Shown here piece by piece: positions 6,930 to 58,062 of a DNA stretch of 64,000 bases. The DNA is taken from contig CM069167.1 in the NCBI GenBank assembly GCA_035221665.1, forward strand, positions 8,370,001-8,434,000, written 5' to 3'. Under the pieces are notes generated by a model. It searched no databases. It was given only the letters and a program-made list of their open reading frames with translations, and was not told the DNA's origin. This DNA is from Okamejei kenojei. Lineage: Eukaryota. Each line of letters begins with the position of its first letter. Positions within the stretch are counted from its first letter, which is position 1. The translations under genes and the position numbers were made by a program.

Positions 6930-7030
6930 TCCAGTCTGAAGAAGGGTCTCGACTTGAAACGTCACCTGTTCCTTTTCTCCAGAGATGCTGCCTAACTCGC
7001 TGAGTTATTTCACCACTTTGTGTCCAACAT
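6930..7030 (+). mobile_element. Penelope-derived terminal repeat with hammerhead-like core
   Basis: CTGAAGAAGGGTCTCGACTTGAAACGTC at 6936-6963, followed by the family body CTCCAGAGATGCTGCC..GCTGAGTT. Confidence 0.75.
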
Positions 7031-11177: not shown

Positions 11178-11739
11178 TCTGCTCTGTCTCACTGCACAGG
11201 TCAACCTGCAAACCAGAATCATAGAAACCACAGAAAGTTTACCATGCAGGCTATACAGCCCGTCATCTAAATGTCAGCTATAAAAGAACTGCCCAGTCTA
11301 ATCCTGTCCTCCAGTACTAAATCGGTAGTCTTAGAGATCAGACCTCTTCAAGTGGATATCCAAATTCTTTATGGCTTCTATTTCTATCTTCTTTTCAGAC
11401 ATGGAGTATCAAATTCTTAACATACTAACATTCCCCAAGGGATATTCTATCTTATAATTCAACATTATCTTACCCAACCGATGAGGAAAGAGGGAGAGGA
11501 GCAGGATGGGAACAGGGCAAACAATAATAGCGTGAATGGAGGGGAGATTGTAAATATAGAGAAAGCAGTGGGGAATAACTAATAAGGTGGGAGAGTGGGG
11601 CAATGCATGACACGGAGATGCTAGATATAGGGCAAGGCCTGTGATCACAACCTGCCATCAGATATTAGCAAACAGCTACACTTCAATTTCATTTGCTGGA
11701 TATCTTTCCAATAAACACTGTCAATCAAGCTTAAGTTCA

Positions 11740-11838
11740 AGGTAGACACAAAATGCTGGAGTAACTCAGTGGGTCAGGCAGCATCTCTGGAGCGAAGGAA
11801 TGGGTGACGTTTCGGGTCTAGACCCTTCTTCAGACAGA
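11740..11838 (-). mobile_element. Penelope-derived terminal repeat with an intact minimal hammerhead core
   Basis: Minus strand reads CTGAAGA-A-GGGTCTAGACCC-GAAACGTC (11833-11806), then the family body. Confidence 0.8.
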
Positions 11839-11988
11839 TGTCTTTTTTTCTTCTTGTGGATCTTCTGCACCAAGGCTGAGGACTCTTTACTGAGGCAGTG
11901 CCATCCGTGCCCTGGCTGCCATCTAACAGAGCCTCTCCTGGGCCATTCATGGAGGCTGCAATTGGACAATAAGCTGCAGATCCATAAG

Positions 11989-12475
11989 GAGGGATATGGA
12001 CCCTTTAACGGGCCGGTGGATTAAGGAGGGATATGGACCCTTTAACATGTCAGTGGGAGGGAGGTTAAGGTGGGATATGACCCCCTTTATCAGGGTGGGG
12101 GGGAGTTAAGGTGGGATATGGCCCCCTTTAGCAGGGTGGAGGGGGGTTAAGGTGGGATATGACCCCCTTTATCAGAGTGGGGGGGTTTTAAGGTGAGATA
12201 TGACCCCTTTATCAGGGTGGAGGGGGGTTAAGGTGGGATATGACCCCGTTTATCAGGGTGGGTGTTAAAGGTTGGGATATGACCCCTTTATGGTGGGGGG
12301 GAGTTTAAAGGTGGGATATGACCCCCTTTATCAGGGTGGGGGGTAAGGTGGGATATGACCCCCTTTATCAGGGTGGGGGGGGTTAAGGTGGGATATGACC
12401 CCCTTTATCAGGGTGGGGGGGAGTTAAGGTGGGATATGACCCCCTTTATCAGAGTGGGGGGGGGTTAAGGTGGGA
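11989..12475. repeat. G-rich minisatellite, ~41-bp unit (AAGGTGGGATATGACCCCCTTTATCAGGGTGGGGGGGAGTT), about 10 copies plus degenerate leading copies
   Basis: Directly visible tandem units that vary mainly in G/C run length. Confidence 0.9.
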
Positions 12476-12479
12476 CACG

Positions 12480-12890
12480 GGCCCTTTAAATCCGAGACGA
12501 GGGCAGCGGGGCCTCTGATCACGTGTGTGCTGCGGCCCATTAGTGACATTGACCCCCTGACCCGCAGAACAACGTACCTCCGCTTTCTGCCGCGGTGAAC
12601 CGGCGCTCGCAAGCCTCACGTGAGAATTGTGGAGGTCCCGGTGCCGCCGCCGGCGCCGCCACCGATCACCCTCTCGTCTCCTCTCGGCATCGACAACCCC
12701 TCGGGGGGGCGGGGCGACAGGACCTGTGCGTCATCACGCAACGCGACGCGTGCGTGGTTCGGCACGCATCCCACGCATGCGCCGGTCGAAGATGGGGGGG
12801 TTGCGACATTGTGTGATGACGTCACGAAGAGCCAACGTGGCCGCCATTTTAGTGAGGTCGACTGGACAGAGTGAGGCAGAGAGCGCGCAG
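12480..12890. promoter_or_regulatory. CpG island, probable bidirectional promoter of the ZBTB45-like and THAP7-like genes
   Basis: High CpG density, palindromic CRE/ATF site TGACGTCA near 12817-12824, YY1-type GCCGCCATTTT near 12840-12850, and outward-facing splice donors on both strands (12577 minus, GTGAGG at 12871 plus). Confidence 0.7.
12578..12800 (-). other. Probable non-coding first exon of the ZBTB45-like gene (5' end uncertain)
   Basis: Good donor GAG|gtacgt at 12578/12577 on the minus strand inside the CpG island. The coding exon has an acceptor 28 nt upstream of its ATG, so an upstream exon is needed. Confidence 0.55.
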
Positions 12891-15501: not shown

Positions 15502-15610
15502 GTCAGTACAGTAGCACCAGCATGCCTGGCCTAATTCCTCCTCAGTATGCCGGCAATCCTCCCTGTCACACTACTTCAGTATGTTGTTTGATTTGTCTTG
15601 GTTTACACAG

Positions 15611-15766
15611 GTTACCAAAGAAAGGGAAAAGTCAGCGTGAGATCTGGTTGCTGAACTGTTGTCGAAAGAACCTGGATGGGACTGTTCCCTGGACTCCTTC
15701 CTCGCAATTTGTCTATTTCTGCTCAAAGCATTTTGAAAGACAGTGCTTTGAACTTGTGGGACTGAG
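15611..15766 (+). CDS. THAP7: THAP7-like, coding exon 2 (THAP core)
   Basis: acacag|G acceptor. Reads LPKKGKSQREIWLLNCCRKNLDGTVPWTPSSQFVYFCSKHFERQCFELVGL (THAP W and CSxHF motifs). Donor AG|gtaata, 156 nt, phase 2-2. Confidence 0.9.
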
Positions 15767-16796
15767 GTAATATGCAGCATCAGTCTGACTGCTAATAGCT
15801 TAAGTGTTTAAAAAACACGGTAGGTTAGTGGATTGACAGTTCAAGGGGGACTGAAAGCTCAATGGCCGTTTCTGGTCATGTTATTTTAAGTCTTCTTTCC
15901 ACCTCCACACTGGCTTGTCTGTCCAGTACCTTCTCCGTTGCTACTTAGAGGTCAAGCGATAATTAAGAACAATACCTTAAATTCTGCTTGGGTATCTTAC
16001 AACCAAATTTACATGAAAGTGGAATTTTCCAGTTTCAGGCAATGTCCTTTTGTCTCCTTATCTCTAGTCTTTGTCCACCCATCCAAGCATCCACCTATCA
16101 CTTTCAGGCTTTTTCTACCCCCACCTCTCCTCCAGCTTTCACCCTCGTACTACAATCAGCCGAGAGGTATATCAACCTGAAATATCACATATTCATGACC
16201 TCCAGAGAAGCAACCTGGCTCCAGCATGTTTATTTCTATGCAAGATTCCAGCAGCTGCAGTTCTGATGTGTATCCATGCTGCAGTACTCTGTTCCTTACT
16301 CAGATAAAGATGCACAACTCTACCAAAGCTGACATGTCCCTGGTTTCTCCCACATCACCTGGAATCTCCTCGTCCCCAGCTCTCGTTATTCTCCTCTTGT
16401 CCAACAATGGCGTGACAATTACTTTGTGCCTGACCATTCATACTTGGACTTTGATTTCTGACCTCTGAGTCGGGCTCTTCGGCACCCTCTTGTGCGTGTT
16501 GCAGCCCCTCAATTAAACAAAAATCGTCTCGGCGTAATCTGTCCATTTTCAGTCTTGTTCCATGAAGATGACACAAAAGGTCTCGACCCGAAACATCAGC
16601 TATTCTTTTTCTCCAGAGATGCTGCCTGTCCTGCTGAGTTACTCCAGCTTTTTATCTGTCTATCTTTGGTTAAAACCGCATCTGCAGTTCCTTCCTACAC
16701 AGAAGTGTGTTGCAATGTCGTTGTGTTCTAGCCTCTGACGTTCTGTTTGTGGGGAGGTCGTGGTCAGAGTTCATGGTTCACCTTCTGTTTTCGCAG

Positions 16797-22559: not shown

Positions 22560-22755
22560 GAATGAAGTCCAAAGAAGGTTTCCAACCCAAAACCTTACCT
22601 ATCCATATTCTCCGGAGATGCTGCCTGACTGAAGAAGGGTCTCGACCCGAAACGTTGTCTATTCATTCGCTGCAAGATGCTGCCTCACCTGCTGAGTTTC
22701 TCCAGCATTTTTGTCTACCTTTGATTTTTCCAGCATCTGCAGTTCTTTCTTAAAC
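22560..22755 (+). mobile_element. Tandem pair of Penelope-derived terminal repeats
   Basis: Degenerate copy at ~22568, then CTGAAGAAGGGTCTCGACCCGAAACGTT at 22629-22656 and the tail CCAGCATCTGCAGTTCTTTCTT. Confidence 0.75.
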
Positions 22756-22799
22756 ACTGAGATACTCCAGTATTTTGTGCCTATCTTTGGATTAAGATT

Positions 22800-31103: not shown

Positions 31104-32623
31104 CAGTGCCCTCCATAATGTTTGGGACAAAGATCCATCATTTATTTATTTGCCTCTGTACTCCACAATTTGAAATTTGTAATAGGAAAAAAATCATATG
31201 TAGTTAAAGTACACTTTGTCAGATTTTAATAAAGGCCATTTTTATACATTTTGGTTTTACCATGTAGAAATTACAGCTGTGTTTAAAAACATAGTCACCG
31301 CCATTTCAAGGCACCATAATGTTTTGGACACAGCAATGTCATGTAAATGAAAGTAGCCATGTTTAGTATTTTGTTGCATATTCCCCCCCCCCCCTTTAGC
31401 AATGCTAATGACTGCTTGAAGTCGCGATTCATGACATCACCAGTTTGCTGGTGTCTTCTCTGGTGATGCTCTGCCAGGCCTGTATTGCAGCCATCTTTAG
31501 CTTATGTTTGTTTTGGGGGCTAGTCCCCTTCAGTTTTCTCTTCAGCATATAAAATACACGCTCAATTGGGTTCAGATGGGGCTATTGACTTAATCACTCA
31601 AGAATTGACCTATTTTAACTTTGAAAAACTCCTTTGATGCTTTAGCAGTATGTTTGGGATCATTTTCTTGCTGTAGAATGAATCCCCAGCCAGTGAGTTT
31701 TGAGGCATTTGTTTGAACTTGAGCAGACAGGATGTGCGTATACACTTCAGAATTCAGTTTGCTACTACCATCAGCAGTTGTATCATCAATGAAGGTAAGT
31801 GAGCCAATACCTTCAGCAGCCATTCATGCCCAGGCCATAACACCCCCACCACCGTGTTTCACAGATAAGGTGGTATGCTTTGTGTCTTGGGTAGTTCCCT
31901 TCAGTTTTCTCTTCAGCATATAAAATACATACTTTTCTCTTGCCATCACTCTGATATAAATTAATCTTTGTCTCGTCTGTCCACAAGACCTTTTTCCAGA
32001 AACTTGGGGTGGGGGTGGGGATGGCTACGGGTTTTTGGGAGGGGGGGAAAGTACTTCTTGGCAAACTGTAACCTGGGCCATCCTATTTTTGCGGCTAACC
32101 AGTGGTTTGCATCTTTCAGTATAGCCTCTGTATTTCTGTTCATGAAGTCTTCTGCGGACTGTGGTCATTGACAAATCCACACCTGACTCCTGAAGAGTCT
32201 TTCTGATCTGCCGGAGACGATGTTTGGGGATTTTTCTTTATTATAGAGAGAATTCTTCTGTCATAAGGCTGTGGAGGTATTCCTTGGCCTGCCAGTCCCT
32301 TTGCGATTAGTAAGCTAACAAGTGCTCTCTTTCTTCTTAATGGTGCTCCAAACAGTTGATTTTTGTAAGCCTAAGGTTTGGCTGCCGTCTCTAACAGTTT
32401 TATTCTTGTTTCTCAGTCTCATAATGGCTTCTTTGACTTTCATTGGCACAACCTTGGACATATTGATAAACAGCAATAAAAGTTTCCAAAGGTGATGGAA
32501 AGACTAGGTGCTGAGAGCACCTTTTTATGCCTGCATTAAGGAGGCATTTAAGCACACCTGAGCAATTACAAACACCTGTGAAGCCATGTGTCCCAAACAT
32601 TATGGTGCCCTGAAATGGGATGG

Positions 32624-32873: not shown

Positions 32874-33710
32874 ATGATGCATCAATTTGCAGATGTTAAA
32901 ATGTGAAATAAAACGTTGTTTACGTTTTTCATGTACCTGATGTGAAAATAAATGAGAAAAAAAGGATGCATGAGAACTATTTGCACAACAACACAACAGA
33001 GTCACTTTAAATGTAATTGTGAAATTTGAGGCTTCAGAACAGGAAAGGTGGTGTGAACTGCAAATACTTTCTTGATAACATGTAATAGAAGAGAGGTGTA
33101 TTACATTCAGCAGTAATATTCATTACTAGGTCAACTTTTTTATGAATACCCTTTTATATTCTTCCCCAGCCATTTTTCGCCTCTCTCCTGTAGATGTTCT
33201 AATCTGTTTACTGGTTTAATCTATTTAAAGCCGTATTTAATAATGCATGTGTTAGTCTTTTTAAGTCCTTGTAAGTATTGCATTTATCCCAGCTATGATA
33301 TTCTATTACTCCACCTGGTACATTTGCTTAAACTCTTTATTCTGCCGAGGTTGACTCTTTTATGCCTAGGTATTGGTTTGGGGGTGGGGGGGGGGGGGGG
33401 GGGGGGGTTTATCTTGGATCAAGCCAAATTTAATCAGATTATGGTATTACCATCTCAATGTGATTTACTTGATATTTACTAAGGCACTGGGTTGAAATCT
33501 GTTTCGCATTACGTTTTCTAGTTCACACCCTACACTAATGGATGTTTCTTGTTTGTTTTTGTAGAAATAAAGGTAGATTAAAGTGATCTTATACTTTCTT
33601 GAATGAACTTTTGATTTTTCTATGTTCCAATATAGTCAAACCTTTGCTGGTTTCCACAATTTTCGAATTATATATAAAATACCTCACTTTGAACTACACC
33701 TAAAACTTAA

Positions 33711-34018
33711 CGTGGAGGAAAGAACTGCAGATGCTGGTTTAAACCGATAGACACAAAATGCTGGAATAACTCAGCGGGACGGGCAGCATCTCTGGAGAGA
33801 AGGAATGGGTGATGTTTCGGGTCAAGACTCTTCTTCAGATGCTGCTCTTTCTTCCATAATTTTGTACTTTCTTTTCCCTGAGTAGTCTGAAGAAGGGTCT
33901 CAACCCAAAACATCACCCATTCCTTCTCTCCAGGGATGCTGCCTCTCCCGCTGAGTTATTCCGGCATTTTGTGTCCATCTCCGATTTGAACTAGCATCTG
34001 CAGTTCCTCCCTATACAT
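33711..34018. mobile_element. Inverted pair of Penelope-derived terminal repeats
   Basis: Minus copy ~33711-33840 and plus copy ~33885-34018 are reverse-complement homologues separated by ~45 nt. Confidence 0.8.
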
Positions 34019-34099
34019 GACAGAGGCCTCTCCTTGGCCATACACACATTTGGGAACATTTGGATAACAAGAACAGATGCTAAAATTCTATTTATTGTC

Positions 34100-34500: not shown

Positions 34501-36619
34501 GTAATCACGTGATGTTGGATTTGAGTTCATGTGTCTGAAAGGTGCTGAAATGTTTATTCAGATTCTTTTTTCACGTGCCAAGTGAGCCCTCATTTTACAC
34601 GCTGACTGACCTGTATAGTTTTCCAGCATTTGTTTAAATCACAGGGAAATAAATTAGCCCATTGCTGCTGACCTTCAGAACAGTTAAATTTGTTGTCCAT
34701 TTTCATGCCCCAAAGAATGTCAAAGTGGATGCGAAGCCAGTGGATGATACAGCTTCCTCAGTTAATCAGAAAGCATGGGAGGTGATCTCTTGGGATTTGC
34801 ACAACAGATAGCGAGTAGTAATTTTCCCTGGATGAGTAGAATAAATGGTTGGTGTGAGAAAGTCATCCGACAATTGAGAAATAGAATGAAAAGCCTCTTC
34901 ATTGTGGATCGAGAATCTTTGGAATTGTCTAGTCTAGAGTTCGCTAGACCTAAAAATTCCAGTGGGTTAATGCCTGTTAATTGAGTGTGTTTCATAGAAT
35001 CTGGGGAGCCGAAGGGGAAGATGGGAATGGCGCACAGGAAATGATGTTACGCAGCATTAGCATGCATATAGGAGAGGTAAATTATACTGGACAAATCTTC
35101 ATGTGTTTTATTGTACAACCTCTCCCTGTACCTTCAACTCCAGGCAACATCCTCGTAAATCATCTCTGCACTCTTTTCAGCTTAACAGCATTCTTCCTAT
35201 AGCAGGGTGTCCAAAACTGAACACAATACTCCAAATGTGGCCTCTACTCCAACGGATCAAAATGTGAGGTCATCCACTTTGATGGAAGAAAAATAGTTCA
35301 AACTTTTTACACAGTAAATTGAAAGGTGCAGGGGTTAGTGTTAAGAGGATTTGAGTGCAATTATATAAGGCCCCAATGTGATCCCACACCTGAAATAATG
35401 TGTTTAGATCTGGTTTCCTATCTATGGAAGGTTAGATACAATAAGTGATTGACTACTGGGGTGAAGGGATAGTTATTGTATGAGAAGGGTGAAGCAGTCT
35501 GGCTCTATAATGTCTGGAGTTTGGAAGAATGAAAGGAAAAATCATTGAAACATAAAATTCATATGTGGTTGGCATGGTTTATGCAAGGATGACATTTATG
35601 AATGTTCCTGGGTCAAATTTTACAGACTGGTAAGTCTGGCATGTGAATAATTTTCCAAAGCATTACTAAATGCATGGTCTGCTATTTAGATTAAAAATGT
35701 GTCTATGTGAGTTTCATTGATCAAGACGCAGTTTGGGGGTATACTGAGGGAAATGCGAGTATGAGAATAATAGCCTTGCAACATTGTGGCAAACCAGACA
35801 GGAACATCCCATAGATAGGTAGACTACAAACTGCATGTTGTGCAACACTGGTTTAGTCTGTATTACCCAGCCGTTAGCTGGATAAATTCAGAGTTATTGG
35901 ACAACTTGTTCTCGTCAATTGTAAACAGTGTTCTGACCTGAGAACTTAAAACTATTGAATTTACCAGGGGTTGTTATGGCAATCTTGTTCTTGGGATACA
36001 ATAACAAATATGACCTGATAACAATTGGGGAGCAAATTACTCCACATCAATTAGCTATGTAGTTGACATTTCAGATGACATAAGGAAAATGTGAACATAG
36101 CTTGGAAACAGAATAAGAATAGATTGAAGACTGGTCTCTTCAATGTGCTTCCTTTAAAAAAAAATTCAAGCCAGAATTATCTAATAACTATTTCTTATTC
36201 TCTCCTGTGCTAATGAGTAGGGAGCCTGGAGGTCACTGATTGTTTTACTTGATGCACAGAAGTGTAGAAACAAATGATCCTTTTAATTTGGAAGAAAAAT
36301 TGTGGTTTCATCTGTAAATGATTCATTTCTGATCCACAAGTCGGTGATTTCCACAAATGAATGACACTCCAATTATGGCCAAATATCTGCATAAGTTTTA
36401 AGATTAATTTCAAAAATGTCTAATTTGAAAACATGGACCTGAAAGGATTTAATTGTACTTTATTAAAGCAAGATTGCTGTTTGAAACTTAAAACAAAAAA
36501 AACCCTGCAGATTCTGACAATCGGAAACAAAAGCATTCACGGAATGTCAAATTATGGAGGCAATGGTCCCTGTGGAAAACAGAAAGGGGAGAAAATAGGA
36601 AGATGTGACCGGTGGTTGC

Positions 36620-37210
36620 ATGCGTCGGGTGGAAGGTGAGGACAAGTGGGACTCTGTCCTTGTTGCGAGTAGGGGGATGGGGAGTGAGAGCGGAGCTGCA
36701 GGATATAGAGGAGTCCCTGATGAGAGCCTCATCTATAGTAGAAGAGGGGAACTCCCATTCCCTAAAGAATGAGGGCATCTCCAATGCCCTGGTTTGGAAC
36801 ACCTCATCCTGGGTGCAGATGCGGCGTAGACGGAGGAATTGGGAGTAGGGGGATAGAGTCTTTACAGGAAGCAGGGTGGGAAGAAGTGTATTCCAGATAG
36901 CCATGGGAGTCAGTTTATGGTAGATGTCGGTCAGTAGTTTGTTACCTGTAATGGAGATATTGAGGTCTAGAAAAGGTAGGGAGATGTTGAAAATGGCCCA
37001 GATGAATTTGAGTACCGGATGGAAGTTAGTGGTGAAATGGATGAAGTCAGTGAGTTCTGCATGGGTGCAGGAGGTAACACCAATGTAGTTGTCAATGTAG
37101 TGGAGGCAGAGTTTGGGGATAGGGCCACGGTATGACTCGAACAAGAATTGTTTGACCTACCCTACAAAGAGGCAGGCATAGCTGGGGCCCATGTGTGTGC
37201 CCATAGTATT
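36620..37210 (-). mobile_element. Penelope-like element reverse transcriptase fragment (pseudogenised)
   Basis: MGTHMGPSYACLFVG, HYIDN (decayed RYIDD), LPFLDL..TDIYHK, PYSQFLRLRRIC and RVPLVLTFHP are PLE RT/thumb motifs. Confidence 0.88.
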
Positions 37211-37249
37211 GGAGATGTCACAAATGAAAGTAGAAAAGGACTGAACAAT

Positions 37250-38780: not shown

Positions 38781-40732
38781 TAGAGCCAGGATGTTTAGGC
38801 ACTAAAAAACTCTGAAACAGGCAGACAAAAAGGAATAATAAAATCACAAAAAGGCATTTATTACAAAACAGGCATTCATTTCCTCCACCAAAATATGGTT
38901 AAAAATGATAATATAAAGGTATTCTACATTAAATGACCGAAGTTGCTTGGTTGCACATAATTACTAGCATTTTTTCCAAATTATCTGGTGTTAAAGTATG
39001 CAGTCTGTCAAGACAGAATATGCTTCAGCTGTGAAAAACTTATTTCGACCTCAGCTGAGGTCACTGGTGCATACCCGAAACAAGCTACAGACTCTCTATT
39101 CATGTCAATATCTTGTGCATTACAACTACCTTTGAGAACTTTAGCTATGTTTTCTATTTCTTCAAGATCTTTGTTAGCTAAAATCTCTCTCTCAGATTTT
39201 CCTTGTATGTCTTTACCTACATCGCCAGGAACTTTACAAATTCTGTCAGTTGCTTTGTTGAGAACCTGCAAGTTATTCACTAATGTTTCGCACGTTTCTC
39301 AAGGGAAGTGATAGCTTGCAAAATTGGAAGCAATAAACATAAGATCACGGTGGAGGGACTTTTTCTCCATGATTTCACTGACGATCCTGACTACAGCAGA
39401 TTCTTCTTCAAGACAGTTGACTATTTATTTTATCTTTTCAAAATTTGCAGCATAGTAGAGTACAGCAGAAAGCCATGTAGCCCACCTAGTCAAAACGGGC
39501 TGATGAGGTAGCGGAATCTCGGGTGCCATTTCCTTGAACAACTGCACACGTGACGGTGCTTTGAGGAAGATTTTCTTGACATTGGAAACTAGGCGATCGA
39601 CATTTGGAAACAATTCTATGAAGTCCTTGAGCTAAGCATGTCAAATGCAACATTTTGGGGAATAAAATGAAGTCACAAACAGAAGAACATTCTGTTGTTT
39701 TATACCTGCTGGCCAAAGTACAGCAAGTGAAAGTGTAAATAACTGAGCAATAGTTGAACTGTTGACTTATCCAATACTTCCGATGTCATCAAATACTCCT
39801 TTGAGGGTGGACATGCCTCCAGTGCACCGATTACCACATTGGCAACATAACACCCCACAGTATCGGTTGTCTTGTCTATTGAGATCCATATTTTCTTGCA
39901 TGCAACTTCCTCTGTAATATTCTATGCAACAATGTTGAAGTTGCTGTCAACATAATTTTTCCGTAATGATGACTCGCTTGGTCTATGTTCCTCTGTATAT
40001 TTCTCTAAAAAACCTCTGAGAGGTTTGTTTTCCAATTTCCACAGTTGAATTCCAACATCAATGAATGCCTTGCACAGATCACTCAAATTCAGATTTGCGA
40101 CTGAGCCAGCAATAAATGTAGTGAGGAGACATGTTTGGGTATTTCGCTTGGGTAGTCTACACCGCAGTGGTATCAACATTGACTTCTCTAATTTTAGATT
40201 GGCCTTGTCTTCCCCCTTCCTCCTTCCCAACTCCTTCTACTGTCCTACTGTCTTTGCCTCTTCCTTTCTTTCCCACCCCCACCCCCCACATCAGTCTGAA
40301 GAAGGGTCTCGACCCAAAATGTCGCCTATTCCTTCTCTCCATAGATGCTGCCTCACCCGCTGAGTTTCTCCAGCATTTTTTGTCTATCTTCGATTTTTCC
40401 AGCATCTGCAGTTCTTTCTTAAATAGATCTTGGAGAAGACTGAACCAGTGGGCAGAGGCACGAACGAATGAACGGTGGTGCCCGCGGTTTCGCCCCGGTG
40501 GTGGAAGTTTTCTTGTAAGTTATACTATGTTAACACGTTAATTAAAACATTAATATTAACGTGTCAACACCGAAAACGTCATCGTAATCACGGTACAACT
40601 AGAGAAAACAGTATGGCCTTTTAGCAAAACAGCAAAAAAAGGCTGATTTAGGCACTCGATCATGAAAAAAGGCGTTATCCTGGTGAAATCATCAAAAAAG
40701 GCAAGAAAAGGCACGTGGCATTTATGGCTCTA
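38781..40732 (-). mobile_element. hAT-superfamily DNA transposon with 8-bp TSD, decayed transposase (DUF659/CGGBP1-related type)
   Basis: TSD ATTATCAG at 38773-38780 and 40733-40740, termini TAGAGCCA...TGGCTCTA. Fragments [33 protein letters not shown] and YAPVTSAEVEISFSQLKHILS (hAT dimerisation-like motif). Confidence 0.88.
40125..40425 (+). mobile_element. Penelope 3' end (ORF tail plus terminal repeat) nested in the hAT element
   Basis: VFRLGSLHRSGINIDFSNF resembles the C-terminus of the PLE endonuclease domain. It is followed by a pyrimidine tract and CTGAAGAAGGGTCTCGACCCAAAATGTC at 40296. Confidence 0.8.
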
Positions 40733-50686: not shown

Positions 50687-51474
50687 CATAATGCAAAACT
50701 AAAGATACACTAAATCATGCATTTAACAGACTAAAAACAAAAGCAAAAAAGGACGAAACAGACTTGGCGAGGCTGCCATCGTACGGTGCGACCTGGTAAA
50801 TGCTGACATGGTGACAAAATCTCACTACTGTCAACTGAGATCAACCCAATATCATTAACAACATTCAGGTATGGTCTGATCAATGCTAAAAGTAACAGAT
50901 AATGACCATCTCCACTTCCACTTCCACCTGTTCAATAAAGTTTCCATTAATGGAAATCTGGGAGGAGGGCTGAAGAGCATTAAGGTGCCAACTCACTGAA
51001 GGTGCAGCACAAGATTATGTGTGCCAAATAGCAATGGGAGAACAAAGGGATATTGCAACAAATGATGTGCAATTCTTGTCATTGTAAGTCATGAATGGTA
51101 GTAGCTAATTAGAATTGAAGGGAGGAGGAGGAGGTGGCTTCCAGAACATCATTATCATCAACTGTGGCAGGGCCTAGCAAGGTACGCCGTTTTTCGACTG
51201 AGGTACCACTTTCACGGCTAGACTACAAGGCCGACCACCCCCCCCCCCCCCCCCCAACTCGAGAATTGCCAAATTTGTTGAAAATGCGGTGGGGCAGGCA
51301 TCCCCGAGAGGAGTCCAACAGTACTGGAAAGGTCTGCCTAGGCTGCCAGGGGCCGAGATACCAGTCTACAAAGTTGGCCTCAAAGTCGGCTATGGGAATG
51401 AATCTGGCGGCTCCAACCGGGCAAAAGTTCCTGAGCCCCGGCCGCAGGTGGCAAATTCAACCTGCCGATCTGAA

Positions 51475-51795
51475 GTCGAAGATAGACACAAAAAGCAGTA
51501 ACTCAGCAGGATAGGCAGCATTTCTTATACCTTTTGATTTTTCCAGCATCTGCAGTAATCTCTTCAAGGTATGCCTACTTTGAAGAAGTTCTCCTCCTCA
51601 CTCCAAAGACAGTTTAGCAACCTCCTCTCTCTGAAGAAAGGTCTCGACCCGAAACGTCACCTATTCCTTCACTCCATAGATGCTGCCTCAATCGCTGAGT
51701 TGTCTACCTTTGATTTTTCCAACAAGTTATTTCTTAAATCATCTCTGGAGAGAAGGAATGTGTGACGTTTCGTGTCGAGACCCTTCTTCAGAAGC
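51475..51795. mobile_element. Cluster of rearranged Penelope-derived terminal repeats in both orientations
   Basis: Cores CTGAAGAAAGGTCTCGACCCGAAACGTC (51631-51658, plus) and CTGAAGAAGGGTCTCGACACGAAACGTC (51791-51764, minus). Confidence 0.75.
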
Positions 51796-56670: not shown

Positions 56671-58062
56671 CAGTGGTCTCCATAATATTTGGGACAAAGA
56701 CCCATCATTTATTTGCCTCTGTATTCCACAATTTGAGACTTGTAATAGAAAAATGTACATTGTCAGATTTTAATAAAGGCCATTTTTATACATTGTGGTT
56801 TTACCATGTATAAATTACAGCTGTGTTTATACATAGTCCCCCCCATTTCAGGGCACCATAATGTTTGGGACACAACAATGTCATGTAAATGAAAGTAGTA
56901 ATGTTTAGTATTTTGATGCATATCCTTTGCATGCAATGACTGCTTGAAGTCTGCGATTCATGGACATCACCAGTTGCTGGGTGTCTTCTCTGGTGATGCT
57001 CTGCCAGGCCTGTATTCCAGTCATCTTTAGCTTATGCTTGTTTTGGGGGCTAGTCCCCTTCAGTTTTCTCTTCAGCATCTAAAAGGCTTGCTCAATTGGG
57101 TTCAGATCGGGTGATTGACTTGGCCACTCAAGAATGTACATTTTTTTTAGTTTTGAAAAAATCCTTTGTTGCTTTAGCAGCATGTCGAATGAGTTGGCAA
57201 CCAATGTGTTTTGAGGCATTTGTTTCAATTTGAGCATATAGGATGTGTCTATACACTTCAAAATTCATTTTGCTACTACCAACAGCAGTTGTATCATCAA
57301 TAAAGATAAGTGAGCCAGTACCTTCAGCAGCCATACATGCCCAGGCCATAACTCCCCCGCCACCGTGTTTCACAGATGAGGTGGTATGCTTTGGATCTTG
57401 GGCAGTTCCTTCTCTCCTCCATACTTTGCTCTTGCAATCACTCTGATATAAGTTAATCTTTGTCTCATCTGTCCACAAGACCTTTTTCAAGAACTGTGGT
57501 TGCTCTTTTAAGTGCTTCTTGGCAAGTACTTAACCGTCCTATTTTTGCGGCTAACCAGCGGTTTGCATCTTGCAGTGTAGCCTCTGTATTTCTATTCTCT
57601 TTTGTGGAGAATGGTCATTGACAAATCCGCACCTGACACCTGAAGAGTGTTTCTGATCAGTCGGACAGGTGTTTGGGGATTTTTCTTTATTATAGAGTGA
57701 GTTTTTCTGTTATCTGTGGCGGTATTCCTTGGCCTGCCAGTTCCTTTGCGATTAGTAAGCTCACCAGTGCTCTCTTTCTTCTTAATGATGTTCCAAACAG
57801 TTGATTCTGGAAAGCCTAAGGTTTGGCTGATGTCTCTAATGGTTTTATTCTTGTTTCTCAGTCTCATAATGGCTTCTTTGACTTTCATTGGCACAACTTT
57901 GGTCCTCATGTTGATAAACAGCAATAAAAGTTTCCAAAGGTGATGGAAAGTCTAGGTGCTGAGAGTTCCCTCATACTTGCTTTAAGGACGCATTTAAACA
58001 CACCTGAGCAATTACAAACACCTATGAAGCCATGTGTCCCAAACATTATGGTGCCCTGAAAT

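Follow-up and report, generated by a model that had tools for sequence, protein, structure and literature searches.

An abundant hammerhead-bearing repeat of Okamejei kenojei is probably the pseudo-LTR end of intact Penelope-like elements

Introduction

The first intron of a ZBTB45-like gene in Okamejei kenojei carries a short repeat that reads as a complete minimal hammerhead ribozyme, and related cores recur throughout the window, the whole 64-kb stretch of DNA analysed here. Such a locus raises the question of whether the intronic copy acts on its host transcript, belongs to a family that spreads by its own means, or is a piece of something larger. A preliminary description, made from the sequence of the window, had favored a separate, non-autonomous, retrozyme-like family. 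We conclude with good confidence that the repeat is the pseudo-LTR (pLTR) end of Penelope-like elements (PLEs), intact examples of which persist in this genome, and that the copy in the intron is a stub, likely neutral, with a minimal hammerhead predicted to be inactive by itself.

Results

We asked what the intronic motif consists of. On the minus strand, positions 11833-11806 read CUGAAGA-A-GGGU-CUAG-ACCC-GAAA-CG-UC, which upholds the intact minimal type I hammerhead core first described (Table 1). CUGANGA, GAAA and UH follow in type I order, the G10.1-C11.1 pair is present, and A9 is followed by an extra base. Helix II is present too, but was first drawn as 5 bp closed by a 2-nt loop, which is sterically impossible; it has 4 bp and a 4-nt loop instead. 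Helix I, correctly called weak, has 2 bp in 145/155 descriptor matches, a U-A or U-G pair plus G-C, and the palindrome proposed in place of helix III is ACGU in the majority sequence of every subfamily.

Table 1. Positions in the window of the 11.8-kb copy, its host intron and other PLE-derived features
Feature	Position	Strand	Basis
Catalytic box C3-A9 (CUGAAGA), then extra A at 11826	11827..11833	-	sequence reading
Helix II, 4 bp + 4-nt loop; here a perfect 12-nt palindrome	11814..11825	-	reading, folding, descriptor
GAAA box, palindromic ACGU replacing helix III, GUC triplet; predicted cut after 11806	11806..11813	-	
Helix I 5' strand, 2 bp, partner 11805-11804; at modal 5' end of stubs	11834..11835	-	
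Entire insertion, a 104-nt PLE pseudo-LTR stub	11739..11842	-	
Intron 1 (5' UTR) of ZBTB45-like gene, host of 11.8-kb copy	11206..12577	-	contig joins, protein matches
Other copy that passes the descriptor, antisense to the ZBTB45-like gene in its intron 2	6933..7024	+	
Two stubs in short same-strand tandem (22566/22629); no complete ribozyme in either	22566..22756	+	
Inverted stub pair, head-to-head, cores 33838- and 33887+	33702..34025	.	
Remnant of PLE reverse transcriptase; 54% identity to aa 787-1050 of intact L111 ORF	36497..37234	-	
PLE 3' end: final ORF codons, 100-nt UTR, decayed core (G12 lost), tail	40170..40442	+	
PLE-end cluster: ORF start MPTLKKFSSSL at 51571+, inverted pair 51631+/51791-	51463..51792	.	

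All the related cores named in the preliminary description were found, including the decayed ones near 16570, 25790, 43160 and 55240, and the family HMM marks 20 fragments in the window. Its proposed check with a minimal-hammerhead descriptor, run here in sequence-independent form, passed two copies only, 11833- and 6936+; among the other listed relatives, G12 (33887 and 40296), helix I (22629 and 51631) or the ACGU palindrome (33838, 38011 and 62638) has been lost. Rfam returned no hammerhead match, even with E relaxed to 5. Other repeats are present as well: transposase remnants with a Sleeping Beauty-like HTH at 57128-57951 (-), probably Tc1/mariner, have similar DNA at 31672-31898.

The 11.8-kb insertion runs from 9 nt upstream of the core to +67 beyond the cut site, and no target-site duplication is visible at 11739-11842. 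It belongs to the subfamily with a 110-nt 3' UTR and differs from that subfamily's majority at 6 positions over about 100 nt. Contigs from 3/4 sequencing runs, which belong to one study of related organism(s) and are presumed to be RNA, connect 12576 with 11203 at GT..AG; the intron is therefore 12577-11206, and the copy lies in sense within it, as first claimed. This is the first observed intron, and there may be more upstream exons. The closest named matches of the host protein are cartilaginous-fish 'ZBTB20-like' proteins, followed by ZBTB45 at 287 bits versus at most 239 bits for ZBTB20 proper, which by protein similarity points to a member of the ZBTB20/45 family, likely orthologous to ZBTB45. 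The same intron holds a G-rich minisatellite (41-bp unit, 10.5 copies, 12053-12475). A THAP-domain coding segment at 15597-15743 (+) (Pfam E 2.7e-5) suggests a gene divergent from the ZBTB gene's promoter.

We examined how common the repeat is in the genome. Sixty evenly spaced 10-kb pieces (599 kb) contained 236 HMM matches against 0 in a reversed control, and forty further pieces (400 kb) contained 142. From the first sample we extrapolate 1.09 million fragments in 2.76 Gb (bootstrap 0.88–1.30 million), amounting to about 4% of the sampled DNA. The high copy number first proposed is thus borne out at about 1.1 million fragments, and its density of one copy per 5 kb was too low, the HMM giving about one fragment per 2.5-2.8 kb. 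An exact 30-nt core occurs 39,727 times genome-wide against 0 in the control, a count that is somewhat inflated because stubs are also carried within other repeats or segmental duplications, as seen where stubs with identical flanks recur at several places (L361, L362, L367 and L365, L379, L380). The descriptor found 21 matches versus 0 and 0 in controls, equivalent to about 97,000 motifs genome-wide by extrapolation. The abundance of the motif is far beyond chance.

Tandem arrays are nearly absent. Same-strand runs in the 599 kb comprised 185 singles, 23 pairs and one run of four, and 47/72 pairs of adjacent copies were head-to-head, the usual arrangement for PLEs (PMC3846280). We found no two or more consecutive tandem units that each carried a complete hammerhead. 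Target-site duplications accompany 12/141 copies versus 3 in the control; at five loci (L323, L337, L352, L355, L372) duplications of 10-25 bp occur with 1-6 untemplated bases at the 5' junction.

To reach ORF-bearing relatives, we used the reverse-transcriptase (RT) remnant at 36497–37234, and an N-terminal query led to young full elements. The repeat follows the ORF end in sense at 20/20 long-ORF loci, after 81/104 ORF-end matches across all loci examined, and at 17/21 in an unselected genome sample; the ORF end is attached in 7/29 of the closest genomic relatives of the 11.8-kb copy. Three of the 20 regions retrieved hold an open frame of 1,178-1,185 aa flanked by two repeats, in the order repeat-ORF(RT, GIY-YIG)-repeat, with the repeats mostly about 3.95 kb apart and the cut site 134 nt upstream of the ORF start. 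For the subfamily of the 11.8-kb copy, this 5' architecture is taken from two sister subfamilies. The suspected link to Penelope therefore stands, since the repeat adjoins ORF ends and intact PLEs exist in the genome. The separate retrozyme-like family finds no support, the repeat being the terminal repeat of autonomous elements.

Close inspection of the protein showed the motifs DKG, YIDD, CX4CxxC and YIG, and Pfam RVT_1 and GIY-YIG match it below their curated cut-offs. The CX4CxxC linker, at aa 1052 of the L111 ORF, precedes the GIY-YIG endonuclease, and a CX2-5CxxC linker in this position is assigned to Neptune/Nematis in the available text of PMC8557442; on this one motif, the element would be of Neptune/Nematis type. 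The hallmarks of EN+ PLEs are present: a single ORF with a C-terminal GIY-YIG between pLTRs, partial tandems, an inverted partner and an optional tail. A pyrimidine-rich UTR of 90–245 nt distinguishes at least four subfamilies from one another. In two older subfamilies ORF-linked copies number 0/10 and 0/11.

Comparing the 14/20 regions that have a direct repeat at both ends, we found 11 private variants common to both repeats, in 6/14 full elements, with a boundary heuristic that inflates within-element differences for short 5' repeats. The shared variants fit copying of both repeats from one template unit, which leaves a circle unproven, and could also be inherited from unsampled tandem parents.

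Several features near the ORF start deserve mention in their own right. Read by eye, an ATG 22 nt past the cut site does not share the frame of the main ORF in the intact subfamily (L111:2803-2960) but does so in a copy of a sister subfamily (L206). A strong 5'-splice-like site overlaps the main ATG in L111:2803-2960 and sister subfamilies. Pairing it with the 3'-splice-like site that follows the cut site gave no spliced junction in the loci (two fuzzy matches were both ordinary copies), nor among the 15/247 contig joints listed. A short 3' UTR intron, possible in one subfamily, is represented by 0 intron-less copies among 81.

The short copies have defined ends. Counted from the cut site, their 3' ends cluster in two classes 35 nt apart, at +62–67 and +97–103, the 11.8-kb stub ending at +67; their modal 5' end precedes that site by about 30–32 nt. 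In the youngest subfamily (65 copies examined, with both inverted-pair partners counted and a few possibly misassigned), 34/46 copies reaching C3 end within 8 nt, and 10 run at least 250 nt. The 5'-end rate is about 0.09/nt at the C3 edge versus 0.009 inside the core and 0.003 beyond. Genome-wide exact counts drop by 8.5%, 17.1%, 17.6% and 5.6% at -2, -3, -4 and -5, or, corrected for chance, by about 23% at -3/-4 versus about 11% at -2/-5. The peak is broader in the mixed sample of all subfamilies, and many copies also end inside the core. The 11.8-kb copy deviates from the mode, beginning at -9, and belongs to a sub-lineage with T at -3.

The predicted cut leaves no such mark. Fragments span it in 160/236 cases, and an excess of 5' ends there, marginal at 4/236, disappeared across all loci, at 5/727 versus about 4 per neighboring position. 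Since fragments cross this site without any enrichment of 5' ends there, the template was uncut or religated, and the stub ends fit short cDNAs of uncleaved, pLTR-initiated RNA. Conserved across subfamilies at the ribozyme's 5' edge is YCAGTCT, which we take to resemble the initiator consensus, and the stub start likely marks where element RNA starts. An extra G at the 5' junction, which copying of a cap would be expected to leave, is weakly enriched (38/100 and 40/100 genome-wide, p about 0.02; 13/18 solo copies), and junctions at target duplications in 60 loci showed no consistent single extra G. As a separate observation, the ACGU palindrome and GUC occupy +27 to +32 relative to the inferred start, a position expected of a downstream promoter element (DPE); D. 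virilis Penelope has a similarly placed DPE (PMC2377424). The core may be under dual constraint, as promoter and as ribozyme.

Alternatively, the 5' pile-up could be an RT stop, or an integration or resolution point, at the ribozyme edge, and the stubs ordinary truncations. The peak indeed covers 3-4 positions, 1-6 nt of untemplated sequence is often added, and the extra-G signal is weak and inconsistent at target duplications, yet we regard this explanation as rather unlikely: end frequency rises in a tenfold step with almost no ends over the next 200 nt, YCAG-T is kept before the core in otherwise unlike UTRs, and RT halted by a hairpin should stop at the 3' arm of that hairpin. A start of transcription at the ribozyme edge is the most likely account.

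We also considered whether the stubs are a self-propagating, SINE- or retrozyme-like non-autonomous family with its own internal promoter, mobilized in trans by PLE protein. Defined ends at both sides, target-site duplications in a subset of copies, a copy depth of 116 in the stub part versus about 1 for the ORF, and two older subfamilies whose small samples show no ORF link, which would allow separate mobilization, could all be read this way. Nevertheless, the idea is improbable, as the stubs agree exactly, in four subfamilies, with the ends of elements that carry the ORF, and stop at the RT start, whereas the anole PLE needs template beyond that point in the accessible text of PMC11167929. 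Arrays are nearly absent as well, and a retrozyme, by definition, comprises two or more consecutive tandem units (bioRxiv 10.64898/2026.07.22.740005, available text). Because the stubs match PLE ends, head-to-head pairs are usual for PLEs and same-strand arrays are nearly absent, we read the stubs as PLE ends, not retrozymes.

Conservation of the motif differs between lineages and inserted copies. The 28-nt core shows 0 differences among four subfamily majorities while the flanks differ at 7-18 of 20 upstream positions; this identity despite unlike flanks points to constraint in replicating lineages. Within inserted copies, G12 is retained in 71% and downstream CpG positions in 70-73%, and non-CpG core retention is 92% versus 90% downstream. 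Inserted cores thus decay neutrally, like other CpG-containing sequence. Among the copies that cover the core, 43/119 retain the boxes and 20/119 (about 1 in 6) all helices. Covariation in helix II, another proposed check, was not seen: copies carry one-sided transitions only, and since the core is invariant between subfamilies nothing is left to covary.

Folding models agree poorly with an active monomer. The predicted probability of helix II is at most 0.14 in six subfamily majorities and 0.01 in the 11.8-kb copy; the purine-rich core pairs instead with the pyrimidine tract after the cut site, so that monomers are predicted to misfold. A double hammerhead is predicted at -5.7 kcal/mol versus -30.2 for two misfolded monomers, a gap of about 25 kcal/mol computed without tertiary terms. 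We do not propose that an 'off' hairpin sequestering the core serves as a switch: although predicted in every subfamily, it is no stabler than shuffles (z -1.1 to +1.4). Published minimal motifs did not cleave as monomers and did so weakly as dimers (PMC4209133, available text), and the anole PLE hammerhead requires the element's protein for cleavage (PMC11167929, likewise).

That the intronic copy, as an active or exapted ribozyme, cuts and thereby regulates the ZBTB45-like pre-mRNA, in trans with other copies, is very hard to credit, for although its core is the best preserved in the window and sense to the gene, with tens of thousands of intact partners genome-wide, its divergence from the subfamily is ordinary, about 1 in 6 core-covering copies are equally intact, the double hammerhead is predicted to be energetically disfavored, and single minimal motifs stayed uncleaved in PMC4209133. 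The 11.8-kb copy is probably ordinary, neutral-looking and predicted inactive, and nothing points to its regulating the ZBTB45-like gene.

Discussion

How would so many stubs arise? We tentatively propose that the hammerhead forms the first 31 nt of a capped RNA, that stubs are 'strong-stop'-like cDNAs of uncleaved RNA, and that cleavage and circularization are reserved for full-length copies. Transcription would start at the initiator-like YCAGTCT, and a start at this edge would account for the 2-bp helix I. RT would prime internally at two 3' sites, as in the anole PLE, and the cDNA would run to the RNA 5' end after about 95 or 130 nt, then insert singly or as an inverted pair and decay. Lacking sequence downstream of the RT start, stubs are probably dead ends. 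Long copies need the ORF upstream of the priming site, and hence tandem read-through or a circle cut at both repeats. More speculatively, the two hammerheads of a full-length RNA might pair through ACGU, probably aided by the element's protein; a double cut would release unit-length RNA, and circularization may give more-than-unit copies.

The ribozyme itself is ordinary, since PLE hammerheads are already known; less ordinary are the extreme abundance of the family and its defined stub ends. The comparisons that follow draw on the accessible portions of the papers cited. Like the metazoan PLE pLTR hammerheads of Cervera and De la Pena 2014 (PMC4209133), the motif has CUGANGA/GAAA, an extra base after A9, G10.1-C11.1 and a palindromic 15.2-16.2, sits in both pLTRs and occurs mostly as single motifs from truncated elements; with D. 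virilis Penelope it shares a 2-bp helix I. Helix II spans only 4 bp here, compared with 6-8 bp in the motifs from Schistosoma and D. virilis, and the published motifs are hypervariable whereas ours is uniform. Coelacanth and Xenopus were credited with about 4,000 and 9,000 motifs under another descriptor, against about 97,000 here and 39,727 exact cores. The start proposed here differs in geometry from that of D. virilis Penelope, where 46 nt separate the start from a downstream 75-nt intron ending at helix I (PMC2377424, PMC4209133).

The Anolis Poseidon element PAc (Frangieh et al. 2024, PMC11167929) likewise has a pLTR hammerhead, two internal RT start sites and an optional 30-40-nt tail, and these start sites and tail match our two 3' end classes 35 nt apart. 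There, uncleaved RNA is the main template, cleavage depends on protein and no reads end at the cut site. The PAc ORF starts inside the ribozyme, whereas ours starts 134 nt after the cut site and, unlike PAc, carries the Neptune/Nematis-type CX4CxxC linker; the accessible text on PAc does not describe a fixed 5' end of short copies. Neptune/Nematis EN+ PLEs (PMC8557442, PMC3846280) share the CX2-5CxxC linker, partial tandems, the inverted 5'-truncated partner, head-to-head pairs and the optional tail. Tens of thousands of copies, counted by 3' ends, were called exceptional among them; the near one million fragments here are not strictly comparable. Non-LTR retrozymes (bioRxiv 10.64898/2026.07.22.740005) have in common with our stubs a type I hammerhead, a pLTR origin, a non-coding nature and an occurrence in one chondrichthyan genome, but form tandem arrays, whereas the copies here are dispersed singles or inverted pairs matching the ends of intact elements.

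A literature search that reached few subscription papers returned no report that deals with this family or describes a start site at a ribozyme edge. For cartilaginous-fish PLE hammerheads, or a cap or start signature, it returned, within main texts, nothing beyond the single chondrichthyan genome of that preprint.

The in vivo role of PLE hammerheads is called unclear in the available text of PMC8557442. The value of the present family is as a test system, with young elements that are intact, perfect cores in the tens of thousands and sharp stub ends, in which promoter position, template choice and the cost of intronic sense copies are directly testable in this genome. If the proposed mechanism is true, the genome would record the promoter, the RT start sites and the choice to cut or not at single-base resolution.
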